IMG/VR virus record: IMGVR_UViG_3300043432_000083
Span: 33,761 to 97,760 of that record
From: a virus
Lineage: Duplodnaviria > Caudoviricetes
Reading direction: 5' to 3' (one strand)
Length of the DNA: 64,000 bases
Shown here: piece after piece, positions 22,569-34,516 of the stretch
Numbering within the stretch: the first letter of the stretch is position 1
How the letters are laid out: the number at the start of each line of letters is the position of its first letter
Program-made: the position numbers and the translations under genes
Notes under the pieces: model-generated
The model's input: only the letters and a program-made list of their open reading frames with translations
The model's database searches: none
What the model was told of the DNA's origin: nothing

Positions 22569-23570
22569 TTACGCCACCACCGAGCTCAGCAGATAGGTCA
22601 GCTGCGTTGCGGTGATCCGCTCGTCTTGGAAGTAGTTCACCCGCTTGAGGCGGGCCTTGATGTCGTCGTCGTCCTTGGTCTCCACGAGGAAGTCCGTGAA
22701 GCCCTGCGGCCGCCACCGGAAGGCATACACGCCCGACGGCGTGTTCCTGGCGGGCCGATCTGCCGCCACAAACAGGCTGGCGTTCTTGCCCCAGATGAAG
22801 GTCATGCTCGACGCGCTGGTCGGCAGGCCCTCCGCCGCGTTCTGCTTCGGCGTTTTGCCCACAAAGTACCGACCCACCTGGAACACCGGCGCGATGACCG
22901 CCTCGATATTGCCAGCAGTGGCCACCTGCGCACCCTTGACACGGTCAATCATGTCGGGATGCAAGAGCAGCGAGTCATGCACTTCCTGTCCCACGACCAT
23001 GGTGAATTTGCTCTGGCCGGTCTCCTTCATGATCCACAGCCGACCGGTCGTGACGTCCGAGACCGGGTCGCTGTTGGCACGATCCGACCACTGCGCGGTG
23101 CCAGTCAGGGCATTGCCAGACCCGACGTTCGCGGCGGTGGTCAGCAGATTCGCCACGCGATTCTCCATGTCTAACATCAGGAGCTGCATCACGTGACGGG
23201 CCGCACTCTCTTCAAGCGCCAGAGCTTCGTCGGCGTTGTCCAAATCCTCATACGCAATGAACTCCTCCAACGCATAGTTCTTGGCATAGTAGGTCGCGCT
23301 GGAGACCGCAGTTTCGACTCGGTTCGGGCGGGTGCCGCGAGCCCGGTTGGTGTCAGGCACCTTGAACCAATAATCCTTATCCCAGGTCCGGTATATATCA
23401 GACTGCTTGGCTACTGGAACCACCGGAATGATCTGCGGAGCCAAGAACTGACTGGGCTCCACATAGAACTGAATCGACATTTCGCTCAAGGGTGAATCGA
23501 TGTGCCAGTCTGTGTCGCTGGCTGCGTATCGCCGCTCTGCGGAGAGGGCGGCCATTCGTGGATCACTCAT
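22569..23570 (-). CDS. Major capsid protein (HK97 fold, phage E-family-like)
   Basis: 333 aa; LAPQIIPVVPV, W.D..NSDPVSD, LLLHPDMIDRVK; follows protease and cement genes. Confidence 0.88.
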   Translation of the reverse strand: MSDPRMAALSAERRYAASDTDWHIDSPLSEMSIQFYVEPSQFLAPQIIPVVPVAKQSDIYRTWDKDYWFKVPDTNRARGTRPNRVETAVSSATYYAKNYALEEFIAYEDLDNADEALALEESAARHVMQLLMLDMENRVANLLTTAANVGSGNALTGTAQWSDRANSDPVSDVTTGRLWIMKETGQSKFTMVVGQEVHDSLLLHPDMIDRVKGAQVATAGNIEAVIAPVFQVGRYFVGKTPKQNAAEGLPTSASSMTFIWGKNASLFVAADRPARNTPSGVYAFRWRPQGFTDFLVETKDDDDIKARLKRVNYFQDERITATQLTYLLSSVVA

Positions 23571-23592
23571 AATTAGTCGCTCCTTTCTCCGC

Positions 23593-23970
23593 TTACGCGG
23601 CGCCCGTCAGTTGAGGATTGAGGATCATCGAGAAGGTGCCCGATGCCACCACGCTCTCTCGTGCGGTCCCGGCATAGTTCGATCCTACCGCCGTGCGGAA
23701 GTAGCCCTGGGCGTCGCAGTCCAATCGGTCGCCCCGAGTGATGGCGGCTCCGGCCACTGCCTTCGTGATGCCGCTCATCCGGACCCGAACCGTCCGGCCC
23801 GATCCTGCCTTGGTCTGCGTGACGCCGATGATCGCGCCGCCCGACAGACTCGTCACCCGCACCTGGTTGTCATTCACCGTCGATAGGCGAACGCCTCGGT
23901 ACTGATGACTCGACAAATCCCATTCGGCCACTGCCGAGAATTCCGGCATGCCACCAATGCTCTCAGCCAT
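23593..23970 (-). CDS. Capsid cement/decoration protein (DUF2190-like)
   Basis: AIIGV, GITKAVAGAAITRGD.L..DAQG, G.ARES. Confidence 0.8.
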   Translation of the reverse strand: MAESIGGMPEFSAVAEWDLSSHQYRGVRLSTVNDNQVRVTSLSGGAIIGVTQTKAGSGRTVRVRMSGITKAVAGAAITRGDRLDCDAQGYFRTAVGSNYAGTARESVVASGTFSMILNPQLTGAA

Positions 23971-24111
23971 CTCTTATATCCTAACCCACTCAGGGGCATT
24001 CATTGTCGCAATTCAATTTAGTGCTTTCTAAGTCCCTACGAATTCTGTCCGATACGGACAGCCTGAAATCCTATCGACCTGCGACACGCAGATCAATTCC
24101 ATACCTAGTCC

Positions 24112-24783
24112 CTATTTCTTGAACATCCGACCCATGCGGGCCGCTCCAGCATCCTGCTTGGCCTGTCCTTGCGGCGTGATACCCGCCGCCATGTCCTTCA
24201 GGTCCGGATTGGCGTCATAGATCGCCTTCAGCGCCACGCTGAACACCTTCTCATTCTTGTCCTTCATGTACTGTTTGGCCTGCTTGGTCGCTTCGGCCTT
24301 CGCCTCAGACGGTCGCAGCAGCTCAAGAGTCCCAGGCTGGCCCGCCGTCTCGGTCGCCTCGCCGCTGGACAGCTCCTTGAACAGGAAGGTCCCAGGCTTG
24401 CGCGACTCGAACAGCGACTTCAGGGCGTCCAGGTTGGACAGCTCCTTGCCGTTCTGCGAATAGGCTTTGACCTGCCCACCGGAGAGTGTGTCATACAAAT
24501 GCTCGACGATGGGCCGCTCAACCGGGAGGATCTTCAGATTGGACTCACTGGTCAGGGAGCTGAACCACGACTCCTTCTCGGTGACGCGGTTCCGCTCGGC
24601 CAGCTCCGCCTTTTCCTTCTCCAGCTCGACCACGCGCTGCTGGGCGGAGGTTTCCTTCTGGCTCAGCTCAGTGACCCTGGTGGAATGCTCCTGAATGGTG
24701 TCCGACAGTTCTTGATTCTTGTTCGTGAGTTCCGCGATCTGGGCCTGCAATGCCTCGACCGTCGGAGTCTGTCCGTCAGCCAT
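24112..24783 (-). CDS. Internally initiated scaffolding protein (in frame with protease)
   Basis: GAAGGAG RBS ~8 nt before in-frame ATG of MADGQTPTVEALQAQIAEL; Mu gpI/gpZ-type arrangement. Confidence 0.6.
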   Translation of the reverse strand: MADGQTPTVEALQAQIAELTNKNQELSDTIQEHSTRVTELSQKETSAQQRVVELEKEKAELAERNRVTEKESWFSSLTSESNLKILPVERPIVEHLYDTLSGGQVKAYSQNGKELSNLDALKSLFESRKPGTFLFKELSSGEATETAGQPGTLELLRPSEAKAEATKQAKQYMKDKNEKVFSVALKAIYDANPDLKDMAAGITPQGQAKQDAGAARMGRMFKK

Positions 24784-25749
24784 TGCGTGTGCTCCTTCCG
24801 TCGGGGCAGATGCGCCCACTGGGGTTGTGTCCGGGCCTAATTCGCCATCGGACTGCATGTTGTTTTTCGCTTTGCTGATCTGTATGGCTTTCTCCTGTGC
24901 TTGCGCCTCTGCTTCCGAACTATGGGTACCCAAGACCTTACCGGTAGACTCAGAGATCAGCACCCACTTGTCTCCTTGCTGCTCAATAATGTATCGCCTT
25001 TCTGCCTGTTGTCCAAATATCTGAAAGGCTTCGTCTGGTTCATAGAGATCGCAGACCTGTCCCGAGGCACATTCCCCTTCCACCAAAGAGCAGCAGGCAA
25101 TATATTGATTTGTGCCCTTGGGATCGGAAGGCCCACAAAAGAATTCACAATTGCCGCAGCAATCCATCAACCCATCATCATTTGCATCCTCGCCGCCTGC
25201 TCGATAATGAACTACGGCTTTGTCCTTCTTGTTAACAGTAACTGGAAGCGACCATTGCGCGGTGGATGGGGCAGACCCGTCCATCATGCCCATGTCATAC
25301 CGCTTGAACGGACGCTGCTCGCCATCGTACAGCGTCTCCAATGCCGCGAGGCTGGTCACAGCCGGGATGTCCGCGCCAAGCAGTGAGAGCGCCTTGACAA
25401 CCCGTGGCCATGTCTTGCCATTGCAACTGTAGTCCCAATATATCTCTGCCGACACCCTATTGTATGCGCGCCGTTTGATCGCTTGGTACACCTGCTTCGG
25501 CAGATCGGTCAGGTCGCAGTAGAGCTTGTCCCCGATGCGCCGGAGGTTCCTCACCCAGCCGATGGCAGGCATCCCGTCCGACTGGGCCAAGGGCTGTGAG
25601 GCATCGTGCCCCAGCTTCATCGGCGGATCGAATCCGACCTGTCCGAAGGCAGCGACCATATGGTCCAGATCCTGCTCGGAATAAACATCACGATTCCACG
25701 TGCCAACGCTGAAGATGGGCACCTGTTTTAGCTCAAAGGTTTCACTCAC
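24112..25749 (-). CDS. Prohead protease/scaffold (Mu gpI-like) with inserted domains
   Basis: IF.VGTW, PMKLGH, PAIGWV..L, Y.RVSAEI, LSLLGADIPAV; C-terminal coiled coil. Confidence 0.88.
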   Translation of the reverse strand: MSETFELKQVPIFSVGTWNRDVYSEQDLDHMVAAFGQVGFDPPMKLGHDASQPLAQSDGMPAIGWVRNLRRIGDKLYCDLTDLPKQVYQAIKRRAYNRVSAEIYWDYSCNGKTWPRVVKALSLLGADIPAVTSLAALETLYDGEQRPFKRYDMGMMDGSAPSTAQWSLPVTVNKKDKAVVHYRAGGEDANDDGLMDCCGNCEFFCGPSDPKGTNQYIACCSLVEGECASGQVCDLYEPDEAFQIFGQQAERRYIIEQQGDKWVLISESTGKVLGTHSSEAEAQAQEKAIQISKAKNNMQSDGELGPDTTPVGASAPTEGAHAMADGQTPTVEALQAQIAELTNKNQELSDTIQEHSTRVTELSQKETSAQQRVVELEKEKAELAERNRVTEKESWFSSLTSESNLKILPVERPIVEHLYDTLSGGQVKAYSQNGKELSNLDALKSLFESRKPGTFLFKELSSGEATETAGQPGTLELLRPSEAKAEATKQAKQYMKDKNEKVFSVALKAIYDANPDLKDMAAGITPQGQAKQDAGAARMGRMFKK

Positions 25750-26018
25750 CCTCTGTCCTCCTCAGCCAGCCTCGGCATCAGTCGCACTCTTGCACCCTCA
25801 ATCGCTGAGGAGCTTTCAACGGATCGTCGCAGTAACTTGTCGCGCATCACTCTGTTGCTCAGATAGTGATTGGTCTCGATCCATGGCTGAAGAATCGCGG
25901 TCGGCGCGGACGCAGGACAGGACCCCGTGGCCTGGTCCGACAAACACATAGGGGAGGAGGCGGCATAGGGAAGGATGCCGACCTGTCCTGCCGCCGACAG
26001 CGTAGTCCTCTCACTCAT
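25746..26018 (-). CDS. Hypothetical protein
   Basis: ORF overlapping protease start. Confidence 0.4.
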   Translation of the reverse strand: MSERTTLSAAGQVGILPYAASSPMCLSDQATGSCPASAPTAILQPWIETNHYLSNRVMRDKLLRRSVESSSAIEGARVRLMPRLAEEDRG

Positions 26019-26069
26019 GCGAAGCACTGAGTCCACTGCATTACCAACTCCACCTCCGCCACCGACGAC

Positions 26070-26255
26070 TCATCTTCGGTTTGCCTCTTTCTCCGTCTGC
26101 TCCCATGGATTGTGCACCCTGACACCCCGGTCCACGGTCGTCCCTGCAAGCTGCGTCTTGCCACACTTCCCACATCGTACACCAGGCTTGCCGCCGATCC
26201 AGGTGCGGGAGAATCGACCGCCGCAATTGCTATGCACTGTCCCTGGTGAGGCCAT
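26070..26255 (-). CDS. Small Zn-ribbon protein
   Basis: HSNCGG...CGKCG; GGAGG RBS. Confidence 0.55.
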   Translation of the reverse strand: MASPGTVHSNCGGRFSRTWIGGKPGVRCGKCGKTQLAGTTVDRGVRVHNPWEQTEKEANRR

Positions 26256-26256
26256 C

Positions 26257-26523
26257 TTAACATCCCTCCTTCTCGCCCAACTCGTCTGGAGTGATCTTGC
26301 CATACTCTAACACTGGTTTGTCGAATGCCTGCGTGATGTACAGCAGATCGTCCTTGAGCTCCTCTAAACTGTCTGCGCACAGCGGGATCGGCTCCTCGGT
26401 ATAGCTACAAATGCTACCATCGTCATCGTCATAATAAACTTCATGGATGCCGTAGTGCTCGATCTCATCTGGGCTGATCTCGCTCCGCAGATAGCGATGA
26501 AGAATGCGATAGTTCCACGTCAT
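26257..26523 (-). CDS. Conserved-type phage hypothetical protein
   Basis: MTWNYRI...YGIHEVYYD...AFDKPVL. Confidence 0.7.
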   Translation of the reverse strand: MTWNYRILHRYLRSEISPDEIEHYGIHEVYYDDDDGSICSYTEEPIPLCADSLEELKDDLLYITQAFDKPVLEYGKITPDELGEKEGC

Positions 26524-27398
26524 ACCGCACCATGTGCAGCGATATGGACGTTGCAAGGCGCTTGGCTGGTTCGATCCCAGCAATTCGAGCAGACTGGATA
26601 GCCCTGTACCATAGCATAATCCTCCTGAAGTTCTATGTGTCGATAACAACGCGAACAGCCCGGCATGATGACAGAGTCTTGCAATCCTTTTGGCTCTACC
26701 ACCGCCAGCAATTCCTTCGGCAAGACCATCCGCGCCACGTCCCCGAACTGCTCAATCAAGAACGCGGCTTCTCGGAGACGTTTGGCTTGGTGTCGAGAAA
26801 CATCATAATAGGCATCCTCCGCCCCGAACCGGCTCCGATCTGCCTGTTGTCCTGGCTGCACCCCGTCCTGCGCCCACGGTGCTTTCGTATGTCGGACAAT
26901 CACGGCATCTGTTTTTGCGCAGCGCCATCCCTTCGCCCGCGCTTGCAAACTGAGGTATAGATCGTCCAAGGTCTGCACCCTCACATCAGGCTCAATCCCA
27001 CTTTCCCGATCTATCACCATGCAGAACCCGCAGCAGTAGGCCAGCTCCAGCGTGGAGTCTATCAACATCGCTTCTGGAATCTTCTCGTCATGCTTAATCG
27101 CCTCTGCTGGATTCAGCAAGGCAATGTTCGGAAGGGCTGACATGCGACAGATCAGATTAACCAGCCAGCCGTCATGCAGCACCTCTGCATCATCTTCAAT
27201 AAGGCACAGATAACGGGCTTGTGACCGGCGGAACAGGCGAATGCGCTTCTCGACTTTCGTCAGTTGCTCCCCCTTTTCGATATACACATCGGCCAGCATC
27301 CCCGCTGAGATGGTTTCGAGGGACTTGAGTAGTCGAGCGAGCCAGGGATTGCTCTCGGAGTCCCGCACGCTGATCCCGATGTCCACGAGGTTCGGCAC
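26520..27398 (-). CDS. GT2-like glycosyltransferase
   Basis: CLIEDD.E....GWL, GFCMVI, DDLYLSLQARAKGW, VRH. Confidence 0.75.
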   Translation of the reverse strand: MPNLVDIGISVRDSESNPWLARLLKSLETISAGMLADVYIEKGEQLTKVEKRIRLFRRSQARYLCLIEDDAEVLHDGWLVNLICRMSALPNIALLNPAEAIKHDEKIPEAMLIDSTLELAYCCGFCMVIDRESGIEPDVRVQTLDDLYLSLQARAKGWRCAKTDAVIVRHTKAPWAQDGVQPGQQADRSRFGAEDAYYDVSRHQAKRLREAAFLIEQFGDVARMVLPKELLAVVEPKGLQDSVIMPGCSRCYRHIELQEDYAMVQGYPVCSNCWDRTSQAPCNVHIAAHGAV

Positions 27399-27559
27399 TA
27401 GTCTGATTCCTTATCTAGTGCCAGCACTGTGTCCCCTTCCTCATCGTCATCCTCATCCTCCAGTCCGATACTGGCATCCACCTCTTGGTCGAAGCTCGCT
27501 TGTGCCAACAGGTCCCGCGTCTCCTCCATCTGATCTAATTCCACCAATAACTCCATCAT
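27398..27559 (-). CDS. 53-aa highly acidic protein (not in ORF track)
   Basis: MMELLVELDQMEETRDLLAQASFDQEVDASIGLEDEDDDEEGDTVLALDKESD; 21 of 53 residues D/E; GGGAGG RBS. Confidence 0.65.
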   Translation of the reverse strand: MMELLVELDQMEETRDLLAQASFDQEVDASIGLEDEDDDEEGDTVLALDKESD

Positions 27560-27566
27560 CCCCTCC

Positions 27567-30377
27567 CTATGCCGCCTTCAACACAGTGATGCCGAACTTG
27601 TGCTCTATCGGCGCCCAGACTATCGGATTGATGTAAGCGCTCTTCGCCACCGACGGCGTGTTCCGCAGTGTGCTGGACACTTGCTTCGCGACATTGGCGA
27701 CCAGTTTCTTCGCCTCGGTCTTGGTCGTCGGTGGAGGGGCAGACTTCAAGGCTCGTTGCGCCACGCTGGTCCCGATCAGTGTGCGTAGGTCCTTCGCAGA
27801 GCATTTGCCATATCCCTTGAGATAGCCATTGACCTGTCCTGCCGAAACCGAAAAGACTTTGTCGGAACCCGACTTACCTACCAAGCGGGATCCGATGGCT
27901 GAAGCCAATGTTGGATCGGTGATCGTTCCTTGCCATGCCATCCCTTTCTTGCCGATGAAGTCGAATTTCACAATGTCTCCAGTGACTGTTAAGTGTCGAG
28001 CTTCCAAGGTTGTGGCGCCATACGCTTTGACATTGGCCTGGGTGTCGGCATCTGAGCCGACGCGCATCGCGGTCGCCAATATCAAGCCGGTGACCACCGC
28101 CTCCTCTTTGCCTTTGGCCAGGTCTTGCTCGACGCCCCGCACCAGCTTCGGATAGACCTTGCTCAGCTCCGCCACCCGCTGGAACTTCGCCGCCGCCCGC
28201 TCTCCGGTCGCCTTGGTGCTGTAGAGATACTGCTGACGACCTTTGCTGTCAATGCCAGTGGCTTGCAAAGCACTATTCGGATTATCGCTCACTTCCACAC
28301 CAGTCCATTGCGGTGGAATATGCAGTGCTTTAATCCGATCCAAGGCGTCTCTATCAGTGATAACCTGCCCGTCCCCGCCCACGAAGGCGCGTCCGCCGAC
28401 CTGATACTCATCGCTGACAGCAGCTCCGGCTCCCTCAACGGCGGTCCACTTGCCTGACTCGTCACGTGCCTGATCCGGGTTGAAGTCGTAGTCCCGCGAG
28501 GCGTGATCGCCGCAGAAGCCGCGTCCAGACAGCTCGATGCCCTTGGCTACTTCAGACGGCGTGATGTACTGCACAGGCCCCTCGTCGCGGGTGATGGGCG
28601 TCCATAGGCTTCGGCAGTTGTAATGGCGCGGTGGGCTGAGTCGATCTTCTTCTGGACTCCCTGGCCGCATGATCTTCTGATCCAGATAGTGACAGACCTC
28701 GGTGGTCCTGGCATCCAAGATCGCGCTGTACTGCATTCCGATAATGAAGCCCGACTCGACCTCCGGCGCAAACATCGCCTTCCGGCCCTCGTTGAGCGCC
28801 TCGATGGTGTTGGTCCGCACCATTGTCTCCAGCCGGTACGGGGTCAGCAGCTTCTCGTCGATGGCCTGATCCGGGTCTCCCAGCCAGGGCAGGAACACAT
28901 CGGACAGGGCCTGCTGCACGTCCCGCAGCGGGAGACCCTGCTTGATCGCGTCGTACAGCACAGCTTTGGCGTCGGACAGGATCGGGTCGCGGAGCTGGGC
29001 ACCCCACAGGGACGCTTTGGACTCGAAGAACTCCAACGCCTTCTCCGGCGGCAGGCCCTCCAGGGTATGGCGGACTTGATAGTCCTTCGCCTTCTGCCGC
29101 TTCAGCTCAGCTTGGGCATCCTTGCCACCCATGCGGAATGCCGCCCCCAGCACCTCCCGCAGCGTCGGCACCAACTGACCCAAGCCCCGCAGCTCCAGGT
29201 CATTGACCAGTTTGGTCGTCAGCTCCTTGCCGTTCAGCTTGCGGGTGATGAGGGCGATCAGCTTGTCCCGGCCCTGTGCCAAGATCGCACGGATACGCTG
29301 CTTGGACTGGGCCTCCAGCGCGTCCAGGTTGGTCCGAATAGCAACGAAGTCTACTTTGCGCTCATATTGGGTCAGGTCGCGGGGCAGGTCGGGAATGTCG
29401 GCGTAGTCGTGCTCATCACTTTCAGTATTGCTTCCTCCGCCATCCATCCACTTGCCACTGTCATCCCTAGCTTGGTTGGGGTCGAAGTCGTACTGCTTTT
29501 TTACTTTCAAGCCTTTTGCAGATACAAGAACTTCCTTATCCCCGCCTGCATTCAGATTTCCACTACTATATGCAGACAACAGAATATTTTTGATGGGGAC
29601 CTTCATTGCAACGACTATTCCTTTTTTGCCGGCATATTGTTTCGCTATTCGCAAACTTGATGTCCAAGATTCTACCGGATATCGAGTTTGCAGCACTTGC
29701 TTCACATCTTCAACCTTTCCAATTCCTCGATATAATACAATAGATTGTATTTTACCTCCTTCAGACATTCGCCATTGAGTATAAGCTATTCTCTTTATTG
29801 CATGGTCGGCTAATTTATCAAAATAGCGTTTACCCAATTGAGTCTTTCCCATAGTCCCTAGCAATGGAGAGCTGGCCCCGCGAGGCGTTCCTATATGTCC
29901 ACCAACTAATTTCTCAAATTCATGATATGTCTTATCCTGTGTTAATTCATTAAATAATTGATCCCTCCTATCCGAGGAATACCGACCAAAACTTTTATAC
30001 GCAGCTTCTATTCTATCTGAATTGATAAGGAGTAGGTGAGAATCTTGCCAGTTCTTGCCTACACCTTTCTCTTCGCTGCCTACACCACTACCACCACCCT
30101 CGGTCCACTTCCCATCCTCATCCCTGGCCTGGTCCGGATCGAAGTCGTACTGCTTGCCAGTCAACCGCTTCTTCAGCTCGGCCTTGACCTGCTCGGCGTC
30201 CCAGTCGGGATGCTCAACCACGATGGCCTGCGCCAACTTGAGGAGGTCTATTTTCGACTCGATGACGGAGACCTGCGTCGTCGGCTTGTCCTTACTGTAC
30301 ACCTTCACAGACTTGACTCGCCACCACGGCAGGCCCCCGTAGGTCTTCAGCCAGGTGCGATCGCTCGCCAGTGGCAT
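27567..30377 (-). CDS. MuF head morphogenesis protein fused to ADP-ribosyltransferase-like and DNA topoisomerase IB domains
   Basis: MuF core (RLETMVRTN, YSAILD.RTT..C..LD, PP.HYNCRS); ART R-S-E motifs (LYRG, ESWTSS, KEVLV); TopIB motifs (MRVG, FIGKKG, KDLRT, NTPSVAKSAYINP). Confidence 0.9.
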   Translation of the reverse strand: MPLASDRTWLKTYGGLPWWRVKSVKVYSKDKPTTQVSVIESKIDLLKLAQAIVVEHPDWDAEQVKAELKKRLTGKQYDFDPDQARDEDGKWTEGGGSGVGSEEKGVGKNWQDSHLLLINSDRIEAAYKSFGRYSSDRRDQLFNELTQDKTYHEFEKLVGGHIGTPRGASSPLLGTMGKTQLGKRYFDKLADHAIKRIAYTQWRMSEGGKIQSIVLYRGIGKVEDVKQVLQTRYPVESWTSSLRIAKQYAGKKGIVVAMKVPIKNILLSAYSSGNLNAGGDKEVLVSAKGLKVKKQYDFDPNQARDDSGKWMDGGGSNTESDEHDYADIPDLPRDLTQYERKVDFVAIRTNLDALEAQSKQRIRAILAQGRDKLIALITRKLNGKELTTKLVNDLELRGLGQLVPTLREVLGAAFRMGGKDAQAELKRQKAKDYQVRHTLEGLPPEKALEFFESKASLWGAQLRDPILSDAKAVLYDAIKQGLPLRDVQQALSDVFLPWLGDPDQAIDEKLLTPYRLETMVRTNTIEALNEGRKAMFAPEVESGFIIGMQYSAILDARTTEVCHYLDQKIMRPGSPEEDRLSPPRHYNCRSLWTPITRDEGPVQYITPSEVAKGIELSGRGFCGDHASRDYDFNPDQARDESGKWTAVEGAGAAVSDEYQVGGRAFVGGDGQVITDRDALDRIKALHIPPQWTGVEVSDNPNSALQATGIDSKGRQQYLYSTKATGERAAAKFQRVAELSKVYPKLVRGVEQDLAKGKEEAVVTGLILATAMRVGSDADTQANVKAYGATTLEARHLTVTGDIVKFDFIGKKGMAWQGTITDPTLASAIGSRLVGKSGSDKVFSVSAGQVNGYLKGYGKCSAKDLRTLIGTSVAQRALKSAPPPTTKTEAKKLVANVAKQVSSTLRNTPSVAKSAYINPIVWAPIEHKFGITVLKAA
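28446..28490 (-). repeat. Head-protein tag copy YDFNPDQARDESGKW (precedes TopIB)
   Basis: One of four 45-nt/15-aa copies. Confidence 0.92.
29448..29492 (-). repeat. Head-protein tag copy YDFDPNQARDDSGKW (between ART and MuF core)
   Basis: One of four 45-nt/15-aa copies. Confidence 0.92.
30105..30149 (-). repeat. Head-protein tag copy YDFDPDQARDEDGKW (precedes ART)
   Basis: One of four 45-nt/15-aa copies. Confidence 0.92.
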
Positions 30378-30619
30378 CAGGCGTTCCCCTTCTCGATCAG
30401 CAGCTTAGTGATCGGCGTCACCACGATCTGCCCGAACTGCGGAATGGTCGCCAAGGCATCATCCTTGACAGCAACAAAGTCTCCGCCTAACGCATTGCCC
30501 ATCGACACCGCAAGCGCATAGTCGACGAAGGTGCCGAGCTTCGTCCACAGCACTGCGTCTTCGGTCTGGGCCAGGAACTTGCCGACGATCCAAATCCCTT
30601 GGCTAGGCATTGATTTCAT
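30377..30619 (-). CDS. Small hypothetical protein between portal and MuF
   Basis: 80-aa ORF, stop overlaps MuF start. Confidence 0.6.
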   Translation of the reverse strand: MKSMPSQGIWIVGKFLAQTEDAVLWTKLGTFVDYALAVSMGNALGGDFVAVKDDALATIPQFGQIVVTPITKLLIEKGNA

Positions 30620-30622
30620 TTG

Positions 30623-33600
30623 TTAGGATCGTTGTGGCCATCGCTTCCATCCATACTCGTCTATTTTAGTCCCGTTTCTACCAATTGAATTAGGAACTAC
30701 TTCGCCAAAATATCTGTACTCACGCGCCCCTATCGATCCCAAAGTGGTATCGACAATTCTATCTGCTTTATCAAGATTCCATGCATGAAATGTTCGATCT
30801 GCTATAAAACTACCTGACGACTGCTTTTCCCAAATAGCACCAATTACAGTTCGAAAACCTTTCTGACGATTGGTTCGCGCGCTGTTATCTTGACATTGAC
30901 CTTGCCTACCTGGTGGGATATTTGGCGCTATCTGTGTCTGCTCTTGCCATTCTTTCGGTATTCTATAAGGACGAGATTTTGTCTCCTTTTTATCTCCACC
31001 ACCTGCACTCCCACCAGCAGTCCACTTCCCATCCTGATCTCTCGCCTGGTTGGGGTCGAAGTCGTAGGACTTCTTCATTGCCTCTACGATCACAGCGTCC
31101 AGCTCATTGTCCTGCGGTATAGCTGTTCCGTCCTCAGTCGGCGCCATAACTCCTACTTGCCCTGCTCCGGTCTGCTCTACCTTGGCTGCCTCGATGTCCT
31201 CTGCCGACTTCTCAGGGAACTCGGTGATCAATCGAATATGCGCCTCATCCTCCGGCGTGCTGGTCACGCCCCCTGCTGCAATGGCCTGGAGCCACAAGGT
31301 CAGCAAATTCGCCTTGTCCGACTCCGTGAACGGCAGGAACACGAACTTGGGATAGTCCTCCACTTGATAGTTCAAGTCCACCAAGCGTCGGATCACTTGC
31401 TCTCCCATCACCGTCTCAGCCAAATCCCGCTGGAGCTTCTCGATGATCAGGATGAAGACGTCGAAGTGCTTCTTCGCCTGCCCATAGCTGCCGGTGTCCC
31501 CCTGAGCGCTCAAGCCCAGCAGGTTCGGCAGCAACAAGGAGCGGGCGATGGCCATGTCACACAGCGCAAAGGTCCGCTCGAATACCGAGGAGCCCTGAGC
31601 GCTGATGCCACTGGTCGGGAATTGCAAGGTGATGAAGTCAGGATGAACATAGGAGGTGGCGGCCTGAAGATTCTCTAAGGAGGTCCGCACATCATCCACT
31701 GTCCCTTCTGGCACCATCCCAGAGGAGGGGACAATGCCCTCGGCAAGAGGGACGCTGTTTCCGGACCAACAGGCTTTCCCGTTCCTCCGCACATATACCA
31801 GATGATGCGGCGGGACCGTCACGCAGTAGATCATGCCAGAATAGTCCATCCAGGACCGCCTATCGTCTGGCCTATTGCAGAATGATGCCCCAATCCGAGC
31901 CTCATTTCTGCTGACGGCATACAGCGGAGAACCATCAGGACAAGTTGTATTCCGCTTCTTGACTCCAGCCCACCCACACTTCAAGATGATCTCCTGTACA
32001 TCATCCGCCAATCGCTCTGATTTCGTGCAATACCCTTGATCGCTTCCGTCACCCAGCCATAAAGCATCAAGCAGAATTCGTAATTGTCGTTGAGATATTT
32101 GCTTCAATTCAATGGGAACAAACTTGTCCCCAGCCTTCCCGAATTGCAGCAAATATTCGAAGAGCTGGCGGTCCTTGATCGTGAATGTCCGCATCCCATG
32201 CTTGTCAAGACTATCCTGCGCGTGAAGTCCGGCGGCGGAAATCCATGAGGCGATTCTATCTGCATCAGGACCGTTTTTCTGGCCGATCAACACCCTTTTG
32301 CTTCCACCGGGTGTTTCATATGCACATCCTTCTGCCAGCCAGACACCAAAGAACCGAAGCCAATCATCCATCGGCATTGTACGCTCTGGATAATCCAGCG
32401 TCCGAACTCCTTTGGTCAAGCCAAGATGATTCGAAGTCTGGTATTTCACAGTCAAGGCAGGCAAAGTAAAATATTCTTGTTCTACTCCGTGCCATATCGC
32501 ATCCCGCTTGTACGCCACACTTCGAGGCAGGTCCTTCGCCTCAATGAACCGGAACCGATAGTCCGGCCTGTCACGCAGATTCGTCTCGGTCGAGACCCAC
32601 ATCCGATGATTCGGCGTCACCAGCAGATCGATGTATCGCCCGCCCTGATGCAGCATCTTACCGCGATAGTGATCCGCGAATGTGTCTGTGACTGATCGGT
32701 ATTCCATTTCCCCGGTGTCCGGACTCAATGTAGCAACCTTGTCCCCGACCTTTGGCTCCGAAATATTTCTCCATCCCTGCTCCGTCAGGATCTCTGTGTC
32801 ATCCGAATAGCAATACCGATCAAGGAACATGCCCAGCCAGGTCCAGGCATTCGTCTTCAGCCACCAGGCGCGATACGCCGCACGAAGATCGGAGGTGCCA
32901 TATTGATTCTGATGCTCCCCCATGTAGCTCATCAGGGCAAACTTCTCGGTAGGAAGTCGCTTGCCCCATTGCTCGATGCCATCCGGCAAAAGGTTGTCAT
33001 GGCCATCCGTCACGAAGAGGAAGCCATGTGGGAGCCTGGACTTGATCGACTTCAGGCCCAGCTTCCCGTTATAGGGACCACTGTCCAGTTGACGGTACAG
33101 CAGCTCGCTAACACTGAAGCCGTATGCAAGTGAACAATTATGAAGAAACACAGAATTTGCTACAAAGTTCTGCACTTCTGGCACATGCATGTCATACACA
33201 TCAGCAAATCCCCAAGGTTCAATAGAGATCACTTCATGATTGTCCCCTTGAGTTTGTACAGCCCTTTGCTTTTCATGGTAAGCCAACATAGCCAGGCGTT
33301 GGCTTCTCCCTTTCTTACGCCGCATATCGTCTGTCCAAATGCGCTTTCGATTTGCGTCAGCAAGCTTGGCTTTTCGCTCCGGAGTCCAAGCAGCTTTGAA
33401 TCCAGATCGCATCCGATCAACTATTTTTGCATCTCCCCACAAGGCACGACTCTGACGCGAAAGACGCGCTCGCTGATTAGGTAAAGCCATAGTCTCAATC
33501 TGCTTTTCCCTCGCGCGTCGGACCCAATCAGCTCCGGCAGCCAATCCCTCTGCCTTGGCCTTGAGCATAGCCTTAACATGATTTTGTAATTCCTGCTCTG

Positions 33601-34516
33601 TCATCTTTGACAAACGATTGCGGGTGTGCTCGCTAATATGTCTACCGTGCCCTTTGATCTCCAAGTTTTCAGGAGCATCATCCGCTTTTTCCTCATTCCG
33701 ATGGTGTACAGCAGAACCTTCCGGAACTGGCCCACACACCTCTGTATAGACCCAGTTAGCCCTCTTACACTGTCTCTCGTGTGGAGGCTTGATCCGAACA
33801 TACCCATCTTTGCTTCTCTGCTGATCAAATGGCATCAGCCGATCTCCCGATCTCAACAGACCAGCTCGTTTGTAACTACCATTACGAAGCAAAAAGGGGT
33901 GATTATCAGTGCAAATAATAGAATCCTCTTTCCATACAAATCCCCATTTCCGATTACCAGTCCGCCACCGATATGTCACACGTATGCATGGCGCATTCTG
34001 CTTACTCAACCACACTTTGCTAGCTCTCGCAAGCGTCATGCGTCCATTAACATAACTATAAACCAGAGGAGTTGTCCCTACAAGCTCTCTGATCGGCCTA
34101 TCTCCGTCCGGAGAGTGAATAATAGTATCTCCATGCAGACATAGCATCTCTTGCAGGTTCTGGTCCAGGCACCCGTCCATCTTGGTGAAGTTCCACTTGA
34201 CAAACTCCGCCACCTCCACACTGTCCGACTTGTCATCCACTGGCTCGATGTCCCATCCGGTGGACAGGATGGCATGCTTCTTCATGGCGAGGGCGGCCTT
34301 GACGGCATCATCGGTCTGCATCTTCTGGTAGATGGACAGGCCCTTGCGGCCCACGAGGTCATCGGAATTGACTTGTCGCTCTAGGTTGGAGGGGAAGAAG
34401 ATAGCACGGCGGTTGACGCTGACTTCGGTGAGGAGCTGCTGAAGAGAGGCTCCTCCCGACTGAGGAGTCGAGGTCCGCGTCCTCCGAGGGGGAGCCTGCT
34501 GAGCCGCTACAGACAC
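30623..34516 (-). CDS. Portal protein (Mu gp29/DUF935-like) with two inteins and a C-terminal extra domain
   Basis: YQKM.TD..V, YGFSVSE, YGTSDLRAAY..W, GSYGQA..H, IRRLVDLNY...YPKF; about 610 aa after splicing. Confidence 0.9.
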   Translation of the reverse strand: MSVAAQQAPPRRTRTSTPQSGGASLQQLLTEVSVNRRAIFFPSNLERQVNSDDLVGRKGLSIYQKMQTDDAVKAALAMKKHAILSTGWDIEPVDDKSDSVEVAEFVKWNFTKMDGCLDQNLQEMLCLHGDTIIHSPDGDRPIRELVGTTPLVYSYVNGRMTLARASKVWLSKQNAPCIRVTYRWRTGNRKWGFVWKEDSIICTDNHPFLLRNGSYKRAGLLRSGDRLMPFDQQRSKDGYVRIKPPHERQCKRANWVYTEVCGPVPEGSAVHHRNEEKADDAPENLEIKGHGRHISEHTRNRLSKMTEQELQNHVKAMLKAKAEGLAAGADWVRRAREKQIETMALPNQRARLSRQSRALWGDAKIVDRMRSGFKAAWTPERKAKLADANRKRIWTDDMRRKKGRSQRLAMLAYHEKQRAVQTQGDNHEVISIEPWGFADVYDMHVPEVQNFVANSVFLHNCSLAYGFSVSELLYRQLDSGPYNGKLGLKSIKSRLPHGFLFVTDGHDNLLPDGIEQWGKRLPTEKFALMSYMGEHQNQYGTSDLRAAYRAWWLKTNAWTWLGMFLDRYCYSDDTEILTEQGWRNISEPKVGDKVATLSPDTGEMEYRSVTDTFADHYRGKMLHQGGRYIDLLVTPNHRMWVSTETNLRDRPDYRFRFIEAKDLPRSVAYKRDAIWHGVEQEYFTLPALTVKYQTSNHLGLTKGVRTLDYPERTMPMDDWLRFFGVWLAEGCAYETPGGSKRVLIGQKNGPDADRIASWISAAGLHAQDSLDKHGMRTFTIKDRQLFEYLLQFGKAGDKFVPIELKQISQRQLRILLDALWLGDGSDQGYCTKSERLADDVQEIILKCGWAGVKKRNTTCPDGSPLYAVSRNEARIGASFCNRPDDRRSWMDYSGMIYCVTVPPHHLVYVRRNGKACWSGNSVPLAEGIVPSSGMVPEGTVDDVRTSLENLQAATSYVHPDFITLQFPTSGISAQGSSVFERTFALCDMAIARSLLLPNLLGLSAQGDTGSYGQAKKHFDVFILIIEKLQRDLAETVMGEQVIRRLVDLNYQVEDYPKFVFLPFTESDKANLLTLWLQAIAAGGVTSTPEDEAHIRLITEFPEKSAEDIEAAKVEQTGAGQVGVMAPTEDGTAIPQDNELDAVIVEAMKKSYDFDPNQARDQDGKWTAGGSAGGGDKKETKSRPYRIPKEWQEQTQIAPNIPPGRQGQCQDNSARTNRQKGFRTVIGAIWEKQSSGSFIADRTFHAWNLDKADRIVDTTLGSIGAREYRYFGEVVPNSIGRNGTKIDEYGWKRWPQRS
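31022..31066 (-). repeat. Head-protein tag copy YDFDPNQARDQDGKW (precedes portal C-terminal domain)
   Basis: One of four 45-nt/15-aa copies. Confidence 0.92.
31757..32812 (-). mobile_element. Intein 2 in portal (352 aa, LAGLIDADG-type endonuclease)
   Basis: Begins CYSDDTEILTEQGW, block B VTPNH, FFGVWLAEG and LDALWLGDG, ends ACWSGN|S. Confidence 0.92.
33137..34141 (-). mobile_element. Intein 1 in portal (335 aa, HNH-type endonuclease)
   Basis: Begins CLHGDT, block B CTDNHPF, VHHRNE.K.D..PENL, VYDMHV..VQNFVAN, ends FLHN|C. Confidence 0.92.

Follow-up and report, generated by a model that had tools for sequence, protein, structure and literature searches.

Are the head proteins of an uncultured tailed phage cut at one shared site and, if so, at which bond and by which protease? 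The question is raised by the head module in a 64,000-nucleotide stretch of caudovirus DNA (here called the window), which spans positions 33,761 to 97,760 of IMG/VR record IMGVR_UViG_3300043432_000083, which is complete at 97,760 bp and has direct terminal repeats. On its minus strand, the module encodes the portal, MuF, protease-scaffold, cement, and capsid proteins, in that order. In phage T4, the prohead protease gp21 cuts the capsid protein, the scaffold, and packaged cargo (the internal proteins and Alt) at one short consensus, Leu/Ile-x-Glu. An initial annotation of the window, made from the sequence alone, had proposed something similar here, with the tripeptide Lys/Arg-x-Tyr ([KR]xY) as a cleavage code. 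We found that, as with the shared site of T4, this one motif ends a capsid leader, recurs after the protease core and within the scaffold, and precedes all four copies of a short "header tag" in the portal and MuF proteins. It is conserved in relatives, it is placed at domain junctions, and it co-occurs with one protease family. On this sequence evidence, we think it probable that the protease of this family recognizes Lys/Arg-x-Tyr and cuts after the Tyr, and that it does so to release itself, to trim the capsid leader, and to free cargo from the portal and MuF proteins.

The motif is enriched in head proteins

All of the strings named in the initial annotation are present in the minus-strand proteins where it had placed them. 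We compared head and nonhead proteins, and [KR]xY was enriched only in the former. The five head proteins had 25 occurrences versus 13.2 expected, and the other 61 open reading frames of the window had 49 versus 48.3 expected. Shuffling gave p values of 0.0002 for MuF and 0.006 for the protease-scaffold, and [DE]xY and Yx[KR], among other control patterns, showed no excess. The junction sites themselves make up a large share of the head protein excess.

A three-residue pattern might recur by accident and then be inherited among close relatives. The pattern is short, and one argument made for it proved weak. The string AERRY is indeed shared by the capsid and protease proteins, as had been pointed out, but 13% of shuffles yield some shared 5-mer, and the two proteins have another 5-mer in common that is without meaning. 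We rejected the AERRY identity as evidence (p of 0.04 to 0.13). The initial annotation had rested its case on placement at junctions, and comparison with relatives upholds this, because there the [K/R]-x-Tyr mark exceeds chance. The relevant observations are given below for each class of protein.

Capsid leaders end in the motif

We compared 90 distinct N-termini of the capsid family, 31 of which are leaderless and start at the junction. The leader ends in [KR]xY in about 48 of the approximately 59 that have one, and by lineage, every leader-bearing lineage ends its leader in [KRH]-x-Tyr. Leaders vary from 5 to about 30 residues, and distant lineages share only the ending, with leaders that are otherwise unrelated. 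The site is kept across capsid leaders at 35 to 40% identity, which an accidental pattern does not explain.

The leader also goes with the protease. All leader-bearing loci with enough flanking sequence hold this protease family, whereas relatives with other proteases are leaderless. Locus L081 is a useful control: it has the same capsid family but a protease of another family (phrog_3017), and its capsid is leaderless and there is no Tyr before its tag. The cultured distant capsid relatives RDJL Phi 1, KPP23, JBD67, and Laroye also have leaderless capsids; the head genes upstream of these do not, by eye, resemble this protease-scaffold, although no family search was run. The JBD30 paper contains no capsid processing data, and literature searches on YuA and Mu yielded no usable information.

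The public gene call starts the capsid protein at Met6 (328 amino acids [aa]). We rejected this start in favor of M1, because relatives keep the first five residues and do not have Met at position 6. The leader of most relatives has a conserved F/Y/x-D-P-R-L/M, which resembles the F-D-P start of the header tag. The capsid leader and the header tag might share a binding partner.

A conserved Tyr follows the protease core

The protease-scaffold gene lies between the portal and MuF genes and the capsid gene, and the protease is fused to the scaffold, as is typical of capsid maturation serine proteases with the fold of assemblin, HK97 gp4, and T4 gp21. His48 and Ser100 are invariant in 14 relatives, and their order, a His followed about 50 residues later by the putative catalytic Ser, is the one expected of this protease class. 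The core is folded in the predicted model, and its closest solved structure is T4 gp21 (5jbl; Z of 7.6, root mean square deviation of 3.8, 113 residues aligned). Herpesvirus proteases gave Z of 5 to 7.4. The top Foldseek rows were all T4 gp21 or herpesvirus-type proteases, with E values of only 2e-3 and weaker. By sequence, the core did not match solved structures, and none of the Pfam protease families, including Mu-like_Pro (phage Mu gpI, PF10123), matched at E 0.01. Therefore, we did not file the protein under Mu gpI, despite the Portal_Mu portal. The model indicates that the core most likely has the T4 gp21/herpesvirus assemblin fold, fused to a scaffold. This fusion family has 192 relatives in viral contigs.

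The models have disordered stretches at aa 126 to 173 (predicted local distance difference test score under 50) and aa 235 to 251, and there is a coiled coil at aa 331 to 399. The protease domain had been said to end at KRY, and we found this tripeptide at aa 149 to 151. Tyr151 is invariant in 10 full-length relatives (34 to 57% identity), whereas the surrounding linker varies in length and sequence, and this too is hard to ascribe to chance. Among 53 distinct proteases of the family in viral contigs, 42 have [KR]xY 8 to 25 aa past the core, and the remaining 11 mostly have Lys-x-His-Tyr at the same place. When 200 pair classes were ranked by their number of conserved alignment columns, [KR]xY came second. 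Further along the protein, Tyr253 at the start of a mini-domain is nearly invariant, with Lys/Arg at P3 in 7 of 12 relatives. The most C-terminal site, K492-Q493-Y494, may be structural rather than cut, judging from the model.

A domain between the core and the mini-domain (25000-25230, minus strand) has Cys198, Cys201, and Cys220 invariant and Cys233 nearly so in a 10-sequence alignment. It is found in most long relatives and is modeled with low confidence. By its sequence, it is probably a metal site.

Portal and MuF junctions coincide with natural protein ends

The junctions in the portal and MuF proteins coincide with the natural termini of the cargo-free portal and MuF proteins of relatives. 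The cargo-free portals of L003 and L136 end 5 to 12 aa after the helix that precedes KSY. Similarly, the stand-alone MuF of L003 aligns to aa 314 to 626 of the window MuF and ends 3 residues before Tyr630. The identity of the MuF body is supported by Phage_Mu_F (E of 1.1e-10, aa 472 to 590) and TIGR01641 (E of 2.5e-9), and that of the topoisomerase cargo by Topoisom_I (E of 1e-24) and Top1B_N_bact (E of 3e-14). A MuF domain and an unrelated enzyme domain are thus joined in one protein encoded beside the portal gene, which is the arrangement of head proteins of the MuF (SPP1 gp7) kind that carry fused effectors. MuF aa 78 to 296 (29490-30146, minus strand) and portal aa 1152 to 1297 (30626-31063, minus strand) had no PHROG family at E 0.1, and whole-protein Pfam scans at E 0.01 found no match in either.

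Two more sites, KTY (aa 11) and KVY (aa 25), had been proposed in the MuF leader. Both are present, and KVY is orthologous in L136, but KTY is not conserved in L003. Overall, the proposal of one short site across capsid, protease, portal, and MuF junctions stands as far as a shared and conserved motif is concerned. Its weaker parts are KTY, the exact bond, which we infer, and the placing of the Tyr within the tag (see below).

The independent lineage of L078 has the motif in all four classes: RRY at the end of the capsid leader, RTY in the protease, RTY at the mini-domain, and a portal-RAY-tag-ADP-ribosyltransferase arrangement. The latter is encoded at 3501-5678 of L078, where, in this distant relative, R-A-Y and a single tag link the portal to an ADP-ribosyltransferase, which matches phrog_3895 as well as the Alt-like phrog_802. 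L136 encodes a weakly Alt-like protein (phrog_802 only, E of 2e-4) in a gene of its own, which shares 8 bases with the end of the portal gene. That protein has a 29-residue leader ending in R-I-Y.

The residues before the header tag vary with the protease

The tag core is F-D/N-P-x-Q-P/A-R-D-x-x-G-K/R/Q-W, followed by Thr/Ser and a Gly-rich linker (Thr in 60% directly downstream of the core, then Gly). We found it in at least 118 viral contigs, never at a protein C-terminus and sometimes directly after the initiator Met in stand-alone genes. The window has four copies, with profile scores of 28 to 34. Literature searches with spellings of the core found no phage-related match.

The initial annotation had each tag begin with the Tyr. 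This proved wrong, because the tag proper starts at the Phe. The Tyr-to-Phe spacing is 0, 1, or 2 residues, and therefore the Tyr is not part of the tag. Moreover, of the 8 tags in the three lineages with this protease, 7 have [KR]xY before them, compared with 0 of 132 tags in 113 other loci. The tripeptides are KSY, KQY, KQY, and RDY in the window lineage, RIY and KVY in the lineage formed by the contig of L004, L083, and L136, and RAY in that of L078 and L119; the eighth tag, also of the L004/L083/L136 lineage, is preceded by R-H-D-Y. Tested by lineage, the association of [KR]xY before the tag with the protease has a Fisher p of 4e-6. When we searched 28 tag-bearing contigs whole with the protease profile, exactly two had the protease, and these are the only two with [KR]xY before their tags; eight of those without it are complete. 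A tag search in 77 further protease family loci found tags only in the lineage already known, and the lineages with both thus number three as before. PF03420, which we used to search for T4-type proteases in five contigs whose tags are preceded by Glu, did not match, but the control genomes were silent too.

The new finding is that the sequence right before the tag differs with the protease family, which separates cut site from tag. These sequences suggest that the Tyr is part of a site that is specific to the lineage and placed just before a tag of wide distribution. They also bear on chance. Tags within one phage are alike at all variable positions, so paralogy is real, and we rejected the within-phage agreement of the residues before the tags as evidence for a site, because it is equally significant at all of those positions. 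However, the four tags of the window have only 67 to 85% DNA identity, with many synonymous changes, and so they are not recent copies. This divergence, and the absence of the motif before tags outside the lineage, add to what the capsid leaders and Tyr151 say, and we regard accident plus shared ancestry as very improbable.

Proteolysis could also occur at another bond, after the tag Trp or in the Gly linker. The tag would then be a removable leader like the T4 capsid-targeting sequence, and the Tyr a mere anchor. The stand-alone genes that start with the tag right after Met do look like a T4-type N-terminal leader, and the F/Y-D-P start is common to the capsid leader and the tag. However, the tag is common to phages with other protease families while the upstream residues vary with the protease, the capsid and protease sites do not have a tag, and tags never end a protein. 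We consider cleavage within or behind the tag rather improbable.

A cut site or a docking contact

Several observations weigh against a cut after Lys/Arg-x-Tyr. Five of the approximately 59 capsid leaders end in HxY, with His at P3. Some leaders have just 5 or 6 residues, and there is no obvious purpose in removing them. Two near-leaderless capsids still have a Tyr, at residue 4, as would suit a structural role of this residue. Tyr253 is the first residue of a strand, although it is just past the disordered aa 235 to 251, and Tyr494 is within a confident helix. Eight MuF [KR]xY tripeptides are inside folded domains, which means that a cut must need more than the tripeptide. Finally, the lineages that have both tags and this protease number just three, and some of the tags in them are orthologs.

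Some of these observations would suit a motif that serves as a conserved contact in docking or assembly and stays uncut; the Tyr and a nearby basic residue might, for example, bind to the scaffold, to the protease, or to the inner capsid wall. The helix around Tyr494 is in the capsid-binding end of the scaffold, and the strand at Tyr253, the very short leaders, and the Tyr of the near-leaderless capsids point the same way. However, docking leaves unexplained why leaderless homologues start exactly after the Tyr and why the motif is in disordered linkers at the natural ends of the portal and MuF proteins. It also gives no reason for a portal to retain a bulky domain at its C-terminus in the region of the DNA channel. 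Therefore, a docking contact is unlikely, and cleavage after the Tyr by this protease is what we infer from the motif.

Table 1. Features of the head module, with positions in the window
Feature	Positions	Strand	Remarks
Portal	30623-34516	-	1,297 aa; Portal_Mu E 5.6e-39; two inteins and an extra C-terminal domain
K1149-S1150-Y1151, end of portal body	31064-31072	-	KSY then DFDP, aa 1149-1155
Header tag 1, 13-aa core from F1153	31022-31060	-	Profile score 28.5; then Gly linker and 125-aa cargo domain to 30626
80-aa gene		-	Listed between portal and MuF
MuF protein		-	936 aa; C-terminal third is topoisomerase IB
K25-V26-Y27, end of conserved MuF N-terminal leader	30297-30305	-	Orthologous to L136 KVY directly before tag
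K75-Q76-Y77 before MuF tag (core 30105-30143)	30147-30155	-	KQY-DFDP; heads cargo module aa 78-296
K294-Q295-Y296 before MuF tag (core 29448-29486)	29490-29498	-	KQY-DFDP; heads MuF body aa 297-630
R628-D629-Y630 before MuF tag (core 28446-28484)	28488-28496	-	RDY-DFNP; heads topoisomerase IB cargo 27570-28487
Glycosyltransferase-like gene	26520-27398	-	Between MuF and protease
Protease-scaffold	24112-25749	-	545 aa
Head maturation protease core, aa 1-137	25339-25749	-	phrog_976 E 1.6e-31; phrog_3894 E 1.2e-25
K149-R150-Y151, candidate self-cleavage site after core	25297-25305	-	Inside disordered aa 126-173
R251-R252-Y253, start of 47-aa mini-domain aa 253-299 (phrog_3684)	24991-24999	-	Status ambiguous
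K428-A429-Y430, scaffold part	24460-24468	-	[KR]xY in 9/14 relatives; loop between helices
K492-Q493-Y494, C-terminal scaffold domain	24268-24276	-	[KR]xY in 8/14 relatives
Cement protein gene		-	Between protease-scaffold and capsid
Capsid protein	22569-23570	-	333 aa; phrog_1005 E 2e-60
Capsid leader, aa 1-15, ending R13-R14-Y15	23526-23570	-	Y15 invariant in 26 relatives

Other features of the head module

The two portal inteins are at approximately aa 126 to 461, with an HNH endonuclease, and aa 569 to 920, with a Hint domain. In the relative L136 (2615-6475), the MuF gene carries an intein, at the conserved H-Y-N-C site. The glycosyltransferase-like gene keeps its position in the interval between MuF and protease in L003, L136, L142, and L123. 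Close relatives of the phage are present in groundwater samples (the Hain contigs).

Discussion

If cleavage occurs after Lys/Arg-x-Tyr, maturation might proceed as follows. In the procapsid, the protease would free itself from the rest of the protease-scaffold at Tyr151, perhaps with further cuts at Tyr253 and Tyr430. The 15-residue capsid leader would be trimmed at Tyr15, and the extra domain of the portal would be cut off at Tyr1151. The MuF polyprotein would be cut at Tyr77, Tyr296, Tyr630, and perhaps Tyr27. The cargoes released in this way would be an unnamed 219-residue module, the MuF body, topoisomerase IB, and the portal C-terminal domain, each still bearing a header tag and Gly linker at its N-terminus. 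The tag itself is distinct from the site and common to many phages, and each lineage would put the site of its own protease in front of it. More tentatively, and with somewhat less assurance than we attach to the cut itself, address and cut site may be separable in general. The tag would be shared across unrelated head proteases, each lineage would have its own site before it (here Lys/Arg-x-Tyr), and the portal and MuF proteins would serve as covalent carriers, taking enzymes into the head before a cut sets them free.

The predicted system resembles that of T4 in having a protease of the same fold as gp21 and one short consensus in capsid, scaffold, and cargo, although the cuts here are predicted. 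An ADP-ribosyltransferase is one class of cargo in both (here in L078). It differs in its site, Lys/Arg-x-Tyr, in the covalent fusion of cargo to the portal or MuF protein, and in a separate, conserved tag that the cargo would retain.

A second comparison is with the giant phage SPN3US, in which eight head proteins, the portal among them, lose N-terminal propeptides of 20 to 254 residues to the protease gp245, which cuts at one motif and also removes its own C-terminal propeptide (PMC10052503). For SPN3US and its phiKZ-type relatives, 14 mapped sites in nine head proteins conform to one motif, and the short propeptides are 20 to 24 residues long (PMC10052503, PMC5694885). One motif across head proteins including the portal, short propeptides, and self-processing of the protease are likenesses to the window, measured there and predicted here. 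However, the motif and the protease subfamily of SPN3US are different, and it has neither a header tag nor carriers of the portal or MuF kind.

Third, the MuF polymorphic toxins and phage polyvalent proteins have variable enzyme domains on a MuF protein, and they have been proposed to be processed either before packaging or after it (PMC5512222; PMC3482391). A MuF head protein with a variable enzyme domain is what the window has as well. However, that work proposed self-cleavage by internal metallopeptidase domains and described neither a header tag nor a prohead protease site (PMC5512222; PMC3482391).

The Lys/Arg-x-Tyr rule bears on the header tags that occur across many phages. It suggests that the tag itself is not the protease site and that the site lies just upstream and changes with the protease. 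If address and cut site are indeed separable, the protease-scaffold fusions, a large and unstudied family, would have their first predicted specificity, and mature virion proteomes would become predictable from sequence. For laboratory phage work, the Lys/Arg-x-Tyr rule would provide a simple way to design foreign proteins for loading into such capsids. If this rule holds, a protease family that is widespread in uncultured phages would have a testable specificity, and it would be clear which virion proteins are trimmed and where. The rule would also explain how enzymes fused to the portal, the C-terminus of which faces the DNA channel region, are carried into the head and released.

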